64,000 nt of DNA, from assembly GCF_988242995.1 (NCBI RefSeq), contig NZ_OZ547044.1; one strand, 5' to 3'. A program made the position numbers. Below are positions 60,901-63,900 of this stretch, one piece after another (positions within the stretch are counted from its first letter, which is position 1; the number at the start of each line of letters is the position of its first letter). Source of the stretch: a plasmid.

Positions 60901-63900
60901 GGCGATAAAGCTGCCGGCACTCTGCAGGGCAACGCCGTTTCGCGCCCGCGCTCTTCGTCGTTGCGGCGGATGCCTGCTCCTTTCCCCTGGCGCCGTATCA
61001 CCCGTTTGAGTCCATTCGCCGGGGCTGAGACAAGCACAGTCGCCATCATCCGTCCAGGGTAAATGGCACGCGGTAAACCGCGCCCTGGACAGCTGCTGTC
61101 GCCCGTGCTCGTTTACGCCCTCGCGGCGAACGGCTCTCAAACGGGTGAAGGTTTTATCCAGGGGGCAGGTTCAGCAGGTCCCCGCACAAAGTCAAAACCG
61201 CGGCCCCGGCAACTCAACGGGTGATGGTTTTAAAAGGCAGAAAAACAGACAAAGGAGAAAGCTGGATGAGCACACAAAACGTCAACGTAAAACCCTCCAC
61301 CAAAGAAAGCACAACCCTCCGGACTGACGGTTTTGTGCGCAACATTCATTCCCGAAACCCATTCGATGTTATCCGCGCCGATGTAGTGCTGGAACGTATC
61401 GAGAAAAAGGCTGGTCGGTGCTGCGGGATGCATTACGAGCTGTATCAGGCCCATCTGCTGGGTGGTGCGCTGGATTATCTGGATGCGCTGCCGTTGAAAG
61501 ACCGTCCGGTGTTAATGGGCGCTGCGGCAAAGCGCGGCTATCTGCTGACGCTAGCCGAAGAGGAACGCGCGCTGGAAGCACGGGATGTACTGATGAGTGA
61601 ACTGGCGGCAAACGACTGCTGAGAAATAAACACGGATGGCGGCGTATCGCTGCCATCCCTTAAAGACCAGAGGTAACGCAAAATGAAAGTATACGGCCAT
61701 CAACACTCATCAGAGGTTTTCTCCCGGGAAACTTCCCCATCCTGTTTTGAACCAAAAGCGGAAAAGGTGATCGCTTTTCATGGAAAGGATGCCAGTTACG
61801 CCTATAACGTGCTGGCCGATCTGAAAGCCGCAGGTGCTTCATATACGCGCCGGAATATCATCGCCGATATGTTCCGCCGTCTGGGTGTGGAATGAGGTCT
61901 GGGCAATGGAACACGTGAAAAGACAAATCCAGCAGGGGGCAGGGAACGCCTATTATGCGGGGATGCAGTGGCGCGGTATTACACTCGGACACGCCGATGC
62001 TGCAGCGCTTAATCAGTTTGATATCGATATCAGCAAAGCTCAGGCACCCGAAGCACGCACCTGGTTGCTTCAGAACAAAGCGGAATTCATCGCTCTTATG
62101 CTGGGTATTGAGATTGTAAAGATCGGGTAGTGAGAAGTCAGCTAACTTAGCTCTTGAGCTAAGTTAGCTTTTAAGCTAACGTATACACATACGGACCAGA
62201 GATTACATTCATGTTCACAGTCATCTTTCATGATGAGGCTGAAAAAGAGTTTACGGCTCTGCCTGCTGCCATTCGTGCAAAAATGGCCAGGCTACTCATG
62301 AAGCTGGAAGCAAACCCTCGCCAGCTACGCGAGCCAGATACCAAGCCGCTTGGAAACGGCCTTTTCGAAATACGTACAATGGGGGCAGATATCGCCCGCG
62401 GAATCTGGGTATATCAGAGTGGTGAACGTATTTTTCTACTTCGGATCTTTATCAAAAAATCGCCAAAAATGCCCCCGGCAGAAATAGATCAGGCACTTCG
62501 CAGACTGGAGGAAATGCAGAATGAAATATAAAACCCTTAGCCAGGTTCATACCGAAGCAATGAACGATCATGAGTACAGCGCGGCATTCGAGGCAGAAGA
62601 AGCCTCGGAGCTACTTCGGGAAACCTTAGCAACATGGCGAAAAGATGCGGGTTTGACGTCGGCACAGGTTGCAGAACGTATGGGCATCAAAGCGCCTACT
62701 ATCTCACGTATGGAGAAGAACGCTGCGCGAATGAGTATTCAGACGCTGATTCGGTACGCCAGAGCCTGCGGTGTTAACTTTAAAATTCAGCAGGTTTGAA
62801 TGATTAGCGATGCCAATAAAGCGGTGAATGACCTGGCGAGTATTGTCCCTCTGCTGGGTGGCAGTTCGTCCCGCAAAGATTACGAAGATGTACGTAAACT
62901 CGTTGAGTATCTTCTGGAACATGACCCGGACAGCCCGCTGGTTGATATACTGACTGCCCGCATTGATGCCTGGGAAAATAACGCGGTGGAATTTACGCGC
63001 ATCGAAGCTGGTAAAAACGGTGTATCGTTGCTGCGGGTTCTTTTGCAGCAACGCGGGCTTTCACAGTCCGATTTTGAAAACGAGATAGGCAAAAAATCAC
63101 TCGTCAGCCGGATCCTCAGTGGTGAACGCAGTCTGACACTCGATCACATGCGGGCGCTGGCAAATCGATTTCAAATCCCGGTCTCGATGTTTGTTGACTG
63201 ATTCGGGAACAGAGCAGGCGAAGGGGGCATCGGTCCCCGTCTGGCCGCGCCTCGAAAGACCGCGCGCCTGCGGCGCCGGGAAAACCGGGCCGCGCTGACG
63301 CGCCGCCCGCATTTCCTTTCCGCGTCTTCCCTGTTTGCTGCCTGCTGTCTGTCTGCTTTCTCTTCTTCTTTCTGCTGTGATGTCTCTTTTTAACCCTTAA
63401 AGGCTTTAAAAGCACACCCATACTGGACACCTTCGGCTCCCGGCCAGCTGCGCTGTCCGGTCGTCGAGCCACACTCCGCTAACCGCGAAAAGACGCGGTA
63501 AGCTCCGCCGAACCCGCAAGCGGTTTCGGGCCTGACGGCTAGTGTCTGATGTCTGAAGTCAAGGTCAACGGCAGCGCTTGCTGCGACCGTCCCGGTCGCG
63601 CCGCTTTCACCGTGCCGGCGAAGGACTGCCGGCACTCTGCGGGGCAACGCCGTTTCGCGCCCGCGCTCTTCGTCGTTGCGGCGGGTGCCTGCTCCTTTCC
63701 CCTGGTACCCGTATCACCCGTTTGAGTCCATTCGCCGGGGCTGAGACAAGCACAACCCGTCTTGCTGTCCAGGGGACGGCAGAGCCTTTCGCAATAAATT
63801 TTTCCCGGCCATTCCGCTGCGCTTCATTAGACCGAAAAAAATTTCCCGCTCACCCCCCGACATCTGCACCGGGCCGTGCTCGTTTACGCCCTTGCGGCGA

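Follow-up and report, generated by a model that had tools for sequence, protein, structure and literature searches.

Gp49-type HigBA toxin–antitoxin (TA) systems have been solved from S. pneumoniae (6AF3/6AF4), M. tuberculosis (7AWK/7NBU) and V. cholerae (HigBA2, 5JAA). In these systems, the toxin gene comes first and is followed by an overlapping gene for an XRE-family helix-turn-helix (HTH) antitoxin. The same order was found for the first two of three consecutive genes (ORF1, ORF2 and ORF3, together the triad) in the plasmid DNA analysed here, a 64,000-nt stretch of contig NZ_OZ547044.1 referred to as the window. The RelE-like fold of the solved toxins is shared with ORF1 (TM 0.6–0.8), at a sequence identity of only 18–24%. 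In M. tuberculosis HigB1-HigA1, the third gene encodes a SecB-like chaperone, whereas at the window locus it encodes a HigA. A TAC-like system was rejected since ORF3 is not SecB-like. In the E. coli K-12 pair HigB (YgjN, PF05015)-HigA (YgjM) (PDB 5IFG), HigA aligns end to end with ORF3, and a plasmid-borne Klebsiella/Raoultella higBA cassette (e.g. CP092513, L016) occupies the same slot as ORF3 and carries a HigB-paired HigA that is 93% identical to it. The window locus differs from these HigB-HigA systems in that both higB and the dyad GTTTCCAnnnTGGAAAC are missing and ORF3 is transcriptionally joined to another TA pair. Three adjacent small genes that include a RelE-superfamily toxin and HTH proteins are also found in paaR2-paaA2-parE2, TAC and PD-lambda-2, as in the triad. 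In those systems, however, the third component is conserved alongside the pair and needed for function, while the third gene of the triad is missing in every more distant homologue and can be deleted in nature.

Two published studies bear directly on the locus. The anti-defence island of Serratia marcescens CP047692.1 described by Samuel et al. (Nature 2024, PMC11541004, Fig. 2b) is an IncF-like leading region with Frpo promoters, TA genes and orphan antitoxins. The GC-rich repeats of the window are 97–99% identical to its 'Frpo' 1 and 2 candidates (two candidates aligned). Judged by this identity and by the published text, the present island is almost certainly the one drawn there as a TA pair plus an orphan antitoxin. 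The KEGG-based labels of that study make the XRE gene ('hipB') the orphan and relE plus higA the pair. Horesh et al. (NAR 2020, PMC7192599) reported orphan HigA-type antitoxins in the K. pneumoniae complex, which were common in Klebsiella and neutralised a HigB; the cassette swap and the leading-region context presented below are not described there.

Our analysis indicates an ordinary plasmid TA pair followed by a leftover antitoxin, an arrangement that is frequent among Klebsiella resistance plasmids, rather than a new system of three parts. Because more than 2,000 sequenced Klebsiella plasmids of the IncFII(K) type carry the locus, KPC and other resistance plasmids among them, reading it correctly is important when TA genes are annotated and plasmid stability is studied. 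The literature search found no experiment on exactly this locus. All three ORFs lie on one strand, and the coordinates of the features are given in Table 1.

Table 1. Features of the triad and its surroundings (positions in the window).
Feature	Position	Strand	Basis or size
Frpo/ssiD-like single-strand promoter element, variant apical part	60919-61265	-	sequence identity, fold
Left boundary of swapped cassette	62130-62136		homology ends just past the stop codon that closes the upstream ORF (74 aa)
Operator-like array, five alternating AGCTAA/TTAGCT half-sites	62140-62183		sequence
Putative weak sigma-70 promoter, TTGAGC-17 nt-TAACGT	62154-62182	+	read from sequence
ORF1, predicted Gp49/HigB-type RelE-superfamily toxin	62211-62531	+	106 aa
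ORF2, XRE-family HTH antitoxin, cognate to ORF1	62521-62799	+	92 aa
Right boundary of swapped cassette	62798-62800		homology resumes at the ORF3 start codon
ORF3, orphaned HigA (YgjM-type) antitoxin	62800-63201	+	133 aa
Next Frpo/ssiD-like element, truncated at window end	63634-64000	-	98–99% identity to Serratia 'Frpo' candidates

The domain content and modelled fold of ORF1 identify it as a Gp49/HigB-type toxin with a RelE fold. Pfam Gp49 (PF05973) was matched over its entire length (E 5e-22, model positions 1–90 of 90), and the AlphaFold (AF2) model (pLDDT 87.6, pTM 0.78) was matched by Foldseek to M. tuberculosis HigB1 (7awk; TM 0.80, rmsd 1.9, probability 1.00), S. pneumoniae HigB (6af4; TM 0.79, probability 1.00) and also V. 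cholerae HigB2 (5jaa). These matches bear out the earlier assignment of ORF1 to the HigB-like members of the RelE superfamily. Residue K82 is unchanged across five homologues and aligned with the Ala of the HigB1 K95A mutant chain; it may be the equivalent of the catalytic lysine K95 of HigB1. ORF1 is predicted to be a ribosome-dependent mRNA endonuclease. The window allele carries T87M within the K-T-P motif, which is elsewhere invariant. An orthologue of ORF1, WP_004152720.1, has been seen by proteomics (PMC12470040), and other Klebsiella Gp49 toxins were found to be toxic in E. coli and to be neutralised by their downstream antitoxins (PMC7192599).

The second gene overlaps the first by 11 nt (ATGAAATATAA) and encodes a protein with HTH_3, HTH_31 and HTH_37 domains (HTH_3 and HTH_31 at E ~3e-11), which upholds the toxin-first order with an overlapping XRE gene originally proposed for this locus. 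ORF2 aligns colinearly with antitoxins from two-gene Gp49-XRE modules (38–51% identity). Both ORF1 and ORF2 are nearly invariant between plasmid alleles, unlike ORF3. With NCBIfam, neither ORF1 nor ORF3 was matched, and the HTH matches of ORF2 all stayed below threshold.

Upstream of ORF1, the operator-like array consists of half-sites starting at 62140, 62147, 62157, 62164 and 62174. The first four form two 13-nt palindromes, AGCTAAcTTAGCT (62140–62152) and AGCTAAgTTAGCT (62157–62169), which together make a perfect 30-nt inverted repeat with 14-nt arms, and the fifth half-site, AGCTAA at 62174–62179, creates a third dyad, GTTAGCTTTTAAGCTAAC. The preliminary description had reported one palindrome occurring twice within 62150–62200. 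The palindromes are real, but they begin further upstream, and the second is the reverse complement of the first rather than an identical copy. No perfect match to AGCTAANTTAGCT was found elsewhere in the 64-kb window, where about 0.004 would be expected by chance for 12 fixed bases (our own arithmetic). Among seven plasmid alleles, the half-sites were unchanged while the intergenic bases around them varied. In addition, two TTAGC-containing repeats were found at the same position in two paralogous two-gene modules (L006 and L009).

A candidate promoter overlaps this array, with TAACGT as its -10 element in the window and TAATGT in the common allele. If this promoter is used, its spacer would contain palindrome 2 and its -10 element would share bases with the fifth half-site. 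The L006 module has an analogous layout (TTGTCT-17-TAATAT). The promoter is nevertheless regarded as weak and putative because a consensus scan for promoters, whose threshold it does not reach, detected none on the + strand at the palindromes. A terminator scan found none after ORF3, and an Rfam search at gathering thresholds returned nothing in 62140–63201; within the window it recovered only sok (58425–58598) and AS-pc01.

The preliminary description was also right to place a second HTH gene directly after ORF2. The ORF2 stop codon abuts the ORF3 start codon (TGAATG), and ORF3 has an intact HTH_3 domain. Residues 2–133 of ORF3 aligned with residues 4–138 of E. coli HigA (5ifg_B) with an E-value of 9e-29 and 44% identity. 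In the window, ORF3 is a minor allele that lacks four residues of the inter-domain linker; the common allele has 137 aa. Directly upstream of ORF3, the position of a cognate higB is taken by the XRE gene ORF2. The two HTH genes were also considered as diverged duplicates or as halves of one protein. This was rejected as BLASTP gave no alignment of ORF2 with ORF3 and each is full length for its own family. The dyad GTTTCCAnnnTGGAAAC is a conserved operator in three higB promoters (L016, L018 and L002). In the 64-kb window, five matches with 2–3 mismatches were found against 3.1 expected; this is chance level, and a local DNA target for ORF3 was accordingly dropped.

The same plasmid slot was compared across related records. 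Canonical higB-higA is found there in L016, L018 and L019–L022, behind the same 213-nt and 225-nt ORFs, and a frameshifted higB-higA occupies it in L015; the canonical cassette was counted in 72 records. When the window was compared with L016 (BLAST, MAFFT), identity was 89% up to ~62129 and 90% again from 62798. The break in homology just after the upstream gene, and its resumption at the ORF3 start, indicate that a Gp49-XRE cassette replaced higB and its promoter. That higB was lost here rather than gained elsewhere is the more parsimonious direction, given that higB-higA is the widespread module. Homologues of ORF1-ORF2 with 44–64% toxin identity were found as two-gene modules in E. coli, Yersinia, E. 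fergusonii and a K. grimontii IncF leading region. In all four of these divergent homologues (L006–L009) the third gene is absent, and the layout is otherwise the same. Synteny, paralogues and deletions identify HigA as the orphan and the XRE gene as the cognate antitoxin, the reverse of the assignment by Samuel et al. The orphan gene of a published leading-region island is thereby corrected, and a clean replacement of a toxin cassette is documented, a route by which orphan antitoxins arise on plasmids.

Taken together, the locus is probably a self-contained bicistronic type II module, formed by the ORF1-ORF2 pair, with an orphan antitoxin hitch-hiking behind it. ORF2 would bind and neutralise ORF1, and would repress the operon at the AGCTAA/TTAGCT dyads over the weak promoter. 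The ancestral IncF leading-region slot would have held higB-higA, from which recombination would have exchanged higB and its promoter/operator for the Gp49-XRE cassette, joined exactly at the higA start codon. As a result of this junction, ORF3 would be co-transcribed with ORF1-ORF2 and translationally coupled to ORF2. The same replacement would have removed both the toxin and the cis-located DNA target of ORF3. It is predicted that ORF2 binds within 62120–62215 and that ORF3 binds, if anything, only a GTTTCCATAATGGAAAC dyad.

More than 2,100 PLSDB records contain the locus, which belongs to the leading region of IncFII(K) plasmids of Klebsiella. In pKDO1, the gene order is ssb, parB-like, psiB, psiA, hok, triad, DUF5983, SLT and traM; all genes from ssb to DUF5983 are on the + strand, and SLT is read from the other one. 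The triad thus lies between oriT and ssb/psiB and is transcribed towards oriT, with the T-strand as template. The first Frpo/ssiD-like element of Table 1 shares 91–96% identity with 'Frpo' candidates 1 and 2 from Serratia CP047692.1 and ~72% with F ssiD; as ssDNA, it folds into a long hairpin (z -8.5). It lies upstream of a six-gene block, the last genes of which are the triad, and the second element begins the next leading-region block. Since the block is transferred first and stands behind an Frpo-like promoter, all three could be switched on soon after the plasmid enters a new recipient.

Selection on ORF3 was then compared with that on toxin-paired HigA. The omega value was 0.27 for seven orphan alleles and 0.046 for seven paired alleles, a constraint about sixfold weaker on ORF3, although the orphan alleles had been chosen across the spread of protein identities, which inflates their nonsynonymous diversity. 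Segregating codons were synonymous or nonsynonymous in a ratio of 14:14 for the orphan and 25:5 for the paired alleles (Fisher p = 0.011). Substitutions in ORF3 occur across both domains, in the toxin-binding N-terminal domain as often as in the HTH. In PLSDB, ORF1-ORF2 was intact in 2,116 records and the ORF3 core was present in 1,573. Hence ~540 records (~26%) have kept the pair and lost the core, a figure that may reflect one clonally expanded lineage and sampling bias. In the one plasmid examined among those without the core (L005), ORF3 has a clean in-frame deletion of 294 nt (98 codons), and both ORF1 and ORF2 are annotated as intact. ORF3 is therefore dispensable and is drifting under a constraint that is relaxed yet not absent. 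The intact frame in ~1,570 plasmids, together with an omega below 1, means that some function may still be selected.

One candidate for such a function, which leaves the anatomy and origin of the locus unchanged, is that of an early-expressed decoy, acting in trans to neutralise the HigB-type toxins of resident or competing elements. Candidate targets include IncF plasmids with canonical higBA, higBA modules borne on Tn3 or IS26, and HigB-based defence such as PD-lambda-2, so that an incoming plasmid would displace its rivals or evade abortive responses mediated by toxins, an anti-addiction or anti-defence role. An anti-addiction module is among the proposed fates of orphan antitoxins, beside a relic and a regulator (Horesh et al., PMC7192599), and Samuel et al. 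proposed such a role for orphan antitoxins of the leading region (PMC11541004). The position of ORF3 in that region, its orientation allowing transcription from the T-strand and the Frpo-like element before it are consistent with the proposal. Possible targets are also frequent on Klebsiella plasmids: besides the records with the canonical cassette, HigA paralogues of 60–80% identity were found in 186 records and of <60% in 771, and most of the sampled rows in both bands had an adjacent HigB, with few lacking an annotated toxin. Moreover, the PADLOC models PD-Lambda-2_A and PD-Lambda-2_B were matched by the HigB of L016 (E 6e-13) and by ORF3 (1e-11), respectively.

In published data, two Klebsiella HigA groups with 71% mutual identity both neutralised the same HigB, and 92 orphan copies of one of these groups, 39P, were reported (PMC7192599). 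The identities between L016 and L002 (71.7 and 83.0%) equal the figures of Horesh et al. exactly, which suggests that 39P is the HigA family of ORF3; this is probably so, with the match made from percentages and not from sequences, which weakens the argument. Several results speak against a decoy. ORF3 has gone from about a quarter of the sampled plasmids with no evident cost, its constraint is far weaker than that of paired HigA, and a conserved neutralising surface would not be expected to take substitutions as often as the HTH. Furthermore, Samuel et al. (PMC11541004) point out that anti-plasmid defence has yet to be demonstrated for any TA system, and the literature search found no demonstrated anti-defence or anti-addiction activity for these genes. 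Retention of ORF3 as a decoy in general is thus considered possible but rather unlikely, and the same tentative standing, at most, is given to the narrower proposal that it acts against the HigB of resident IncF rivals or of abortive-infection systems like PD-lambda-2. If it were true, the swap would have turned an addiction module into a new addiction module plus an antidote to the old one, epidemic Klebsiella resistance plasmids would gain an edge in displacing competitors, and the locus would offer a concrete, testable case of anti-addiction in plasmid competition. Without such a role, the locus amounts to an ordinary TA module that carries a decaying gene as a passenger.

The favoured reading, a TA pair with a hitch-hiking orphan, was also weighed against a genuine three-component TA system, in which the tasks of antitoxin and regulator would be shared out between ORF2 and ORF3 as in paaR2-paaA2-parE2, for instance with one protein neutralising ORF1 and the other acting at the palindromes as repressor of the promoter. 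The tight packing of the genes (11-nt overlap, abutting stop and start codons) is consistent with co-transcription, both downstream genes encode HTH proteins, and five half-sites exceed the need of one dimer. However, two-gene homologues with upstream repeats of their own are the rule, and the HigA-family operator differs from the AGCTAA dyads. The ORF3 orthologue stands behind canonical higB, a toxin of another family, in the very same slot; natural deletions of ORF3 leave ORF1-ORF2 in place, and its constraint is relaxed compared to the near-invariant pair. The suggestion in the preliminary description that ORF2 and ORF3 are a split antitoxin/regulator is not supported, as ORF2 is itself full-length and ORF3 is a complete HigA from a different TA family. 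A three-component system is therefore very improbable.

Equally hard to credit is a re-purposing of ORF3 as a toxin-independent regulator of transcription at other genes of the plasmid or host, a fate reported for certain orphan or chromosomal HigA proteins: the intact HTH_3 domain, the reading frame kept in most plasmids and the regulator fate listed by Horesh et al. (PMC7192599) would fit, but HigA-type operators in the window do not exceed chance, and several ORF3 alleles carry I109F, S111C or L117F in or beside the predicted recognition helix.

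In the preliminary description, this stretch had been read as a HigB-like toxin gene followed by two HTH genes, and the three ORFs were present as described (table). ORF1 matched Pfam Gp49 (PF05973) across the whole model (E = 5e-22), with weak sequence resemblance to solved HigB toxins. An AlphaFold model of ORF1, built from an alignment of five homologues (pLDDT 87.6), had M. tuberculosis HigB1 as its top PDB match (TM 0.80, rmsd 1.9 Å), followed by S. pneumoniae HigB (TM 0.79), V. cholerae HigB2 and then RelE proteins. Because of these matches, the HigB/RelE toxin fold was taken as confirmed at the level of a predicted structure. 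Residue K82 was unchanged across homologues and, by alignment, may be the counterpart of the residue mutated in the HigB1 K95A structure. An ORF1 orthologue, WP_004152720.1, is listed among the quantified proteins of a proteomics study (PMC12470040). ORF2, a small XRE-HTH protein, carries HTH_3 and HTH_31 domains (E about 3e-11). Together with ORF1 it adds a new, uncharacterised pair to the Gp49/HigB-XRE family.

Features of the triad (ORF1 to ORF3) and its surroundings
Feature	Position	Strand	Details
ORF1	62211-62531	+	106 aa
ORF2	62521-62799	+	92 aa; 11-nt overlap with ORF1
ORF3	62800-63201	+	133 aa; ATG abuts ORF2 stop (TGAATG)
Half-site array	62140-62179		five alternating AGCTAA/TTAGCT, upstream of ORF1
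Two 13-nt palindromes	62140-62152; 62157-62169		within half-site array
sok antitoxin RNA	58425-58598	+	hok/sok type I TA, upstream in leading region; Rfam, 67 bits
Antisense RNA AS-pc01	50276-50372	-	Rfam, 98 bits
GC-rich Frpo-like copies	60919-61265; 63634-64000	-	flanking triad block
Other GC-rich Frpo-like copies	49658-50040; 53043-53439	-	
Longer repeat units of GC-rich element	52633-53410; 63224-64000		
Private change, ORF1	62470		T87M
Private changes, ORF2	62638; 62646; 62725; 62749		
Private change, ORF3	62993		12-nt deletion

A palindrome had also been described upstream of ORF1; it exists, although the position given (62150-62200) was off by about 10 nt and the two copies are mutual reverse complements, not identical. 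The array also forms a 30-nt perfect inverted repeat plus a third dyad, GTTAGCTTTTAAGCTAAC. A motif scan for AGCTAANTTAGCT gave no further perfect match anywhere in the 64-kb window. The half-sites were unchanged in seven plasmid alleles, though adjacent intergenic bases varied. In two divergent Gp49-XRE modules (L006 and L009), two direct copies of AAATTAGCyTATAGGTTAA lie approximately 30-90 nt before the toxin start codon, with one copy inside the promoter spacer. These repeats and the window dyads have a TTAGC core in common, at the same position relative to the toxin gene, which suggests a related operator grammar across the ORF2 family. Since these paralogues, which are without ORF3, carry analogous repeats at the same position, the ORF2 family is the likely dyad binder. 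ORF1 would be a toxin acting as a ribosome-dependent mRNase, and ORF2 its putative antitoxin and a repressor on the AGCTAA/TTAGCT dyads. A weak candidate promoter, TTGAGC-17-TAACGT, read by eye and not called in a consensus promoter scan, would overlap the dyads.

The suggestion that the three genes form one three-component system was rejected on four lines of evidence. The four ORF1-ORF2 homologues examined (44-64% toxin identity) were all two-gene modules, with antitoxins colinear with ORF2; one lay in an IS26-flanked segment of E. coli, one on a 7-kb ColE-type plasmid of Yersinia, one on an IncX1 plasmid and one in another IncF leading region, that of a K. grimontii plasmid. No similarity between ORF2 and ORF3 was detectable by BLASTP. 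ORF3, which has its HTH_3 domain at the C-terminus, aligned end to end with E. coli K-12 HigA/YgjM (5ifg_B; E = 9e-29, 44% identity), and the genes of relatives with 65% and 45% identity come immediately after those for toxins of a different family, the YgjN-type HigB. ORF3 is also dispensable. In PLSDB, ORF1-ORF2 was intact in 2,116 records and the ORF3 core present in just 1,573. NZ_CP050345.1 carries a clean in-frame 294-nt deletion (its position 3998-4001; window equivalent 62803-63096) that removes ORF3 codons 2-99, with ORF1 and ORF2 annotated intact. This or similar losses affect approximately 540 of the 2,116 plasmids, and the same pattern in ten sampled truncated ORF3 matches suggests a single clonally expanded event.

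A further line of evidence, a canonical higB-higA in the same slot, came from a group of IncF plasmids of Klebsiella and Raoultella, where this cassette follows the same 213-nt and 225-nt ORFs and encodes a HigA with 93% identity to ORF3. Homology between the window and one of these plasmids (L016) extends to approximately 62129, just beyond the stop of the upstream ORF, is lost over the palindromes, ORF1 and ORF2, and returns at 62798, at the ORF3 start codon. On the simplest reading, higB and its promoter would have given way to a Gp49-XRE cassette that brought its own operator, leaving higA an orphan. ORF3 belongs by sequence to the HigA (YgjM) system but is an orphan, since it lacks what defines that system, a neighbouring HigB and an operator of its own. 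The dyad GTTTCCAnnnTGGAAAC, common to the higB promoters of three relatives, where it follows the -10 element and precedes the ribosome-binding site, had only chance-level partial matches in the 64-kb window (5 observed versus 3.1 expected); ORF3 thus retains neither its toxin nor its target in cis. In the K. grimontii plasmid NZ_OP378634.1 (1440-2210), both genes of the higB-higA in this slot are frameshifted, a TA locus caught decaying; the C-terminal fragment of its higB is similar to the 53-aa ‘short HigB’ tested by Horesh et al. (PMC7192599).

Orphan and toxin-paired higA alleles were under clearly different constraint. Summed pairwise omega was 0.27 for seven orphan alleles, whose selection across a range of protein identities inflates nonsynonymous diversity, and 0.046 for seven toxin-paired alleles. 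Segregating codons (synonymous:nonsynonymous) numbered 14:14 and 25:5, respectively (Fisher's exact test, p = 0.011), and ORF3 replacements were scattered across the N-terminal and HTH domains alike. An alternative, that ORF3 is an early-expressed decoy antitoxin against rival plasmids or HigB-based defences, is considered rather unlikely. In its favour, most plasmids retain an intact ORF3 frame, omega is below 1, and HigB toxins are frequent on Klebsiella plasmids. Two Klebsiella HigA groups with 71% mutual identity both neutralise one HigB, and one of these groups, 39P, was reported to have 92 orphan copies (Horesh et al., NAR 2020, PMC7192599). As the L016 cassette and another higB-higA cassette (L002) reproduce the published figures (HigA 71.7%, HigB C-terminal 53 aa 83.0% identity), 39P is probably ORF3's family. 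The L016 HigB (3605-3916) matched PADLOC PD-Lambda-2_A (E = 6e-13) and ORF3 the N-terminal third of PD-Lambda-2_B (E = 1e-11), matches that link the HigBA family to PD-lambda-2, a validated anti-phage defence system (PMC9519451). The favoured reading is that ORF3 would be co-transcribed and translationally coupled, and functionally a passenger.

The 1.15-kb triad segment occurred in 2,206 PLSDB plasmid records, 2,112 from Klebsiella and the majority typed conjugative. In pKDO1, 100% identical across the segment, the triad is part of the IncFII(K) leading region, in the order methyltransferase, ssb, parB-like, psiB, psiA, hok/sok, small ORFs, triad, DUF5983, SLT and traM, with the leading-region genes oriented toward oriT except the SLT gene on the opposite strand. 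Each GC-rich copy stands before one block of leading-region genes. Three copies were 96-99% identical to ‘Frpo’ candidates of Serratia marcescens CP047692.1 (Samuel et al., Nature 2024, PMC11541004); the copy at 60919-61265, in which the apical segment differs, was 91-96% identical to them, and all four were 68-72% identical to F ssiD. The elements fold into long ssDNA hairpins (z -6.6 and -8.5), and early Frpo-driven expression of the triad may be expected.

PGAP annotation of the arrangement is already in thousands of records, and a TA with an orphan antitoxin has been noted (PMC11541004, PMC7192599). The triad is almost certainly the one in the leading-region island of Samuel et al., where the ORF2 family is labelled from KEGG as ‘hipB’, an orphan beside ‘higA/relE’ (Fig. 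2b text and Supplementary Table family 36; PMC11541004). Those labels make the XRE gene the orphan, whereas here it is the HigA of ORF3; synteny and paralogues indicate that the pair and orphan labels should be exchanged. This reversal and the proposed cassette-swap origin are what is new here.

ORF1 and ORF2 were nearly invariant in the same plasmids where ORF3 varied. Variable sites clustered either side of a near-monomorphic core (62206-62858, covering ORF1, ORF2 and about 60 nt at the start of ORF3), the flanks (61650-62205 and 62859-63230) differing by 4-6% between plasmids, which suggests that recombination spread or homogenised the core, crossovers having fallen within the upstream ORF and ORF3. 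Across the compared plasmids, ORF1 had no synonymous differences, and the cassette-specific intergenic region differed at 5 positions in 80 nt; the core has probably undergone gene conversion or a recent sweep. The ORF3 allele of the window, which lacks 4 aa of the linker, is a minority form, with 81 records reaching at least 99% identity. In the window haplotype, each of the three genes has private nonsynonymous changes (table). T87M falls in the otherwise invariant K-T-P motif of the toxin and could attenuate it in the sub-lineage, which comprises about 81 PLSDB records.
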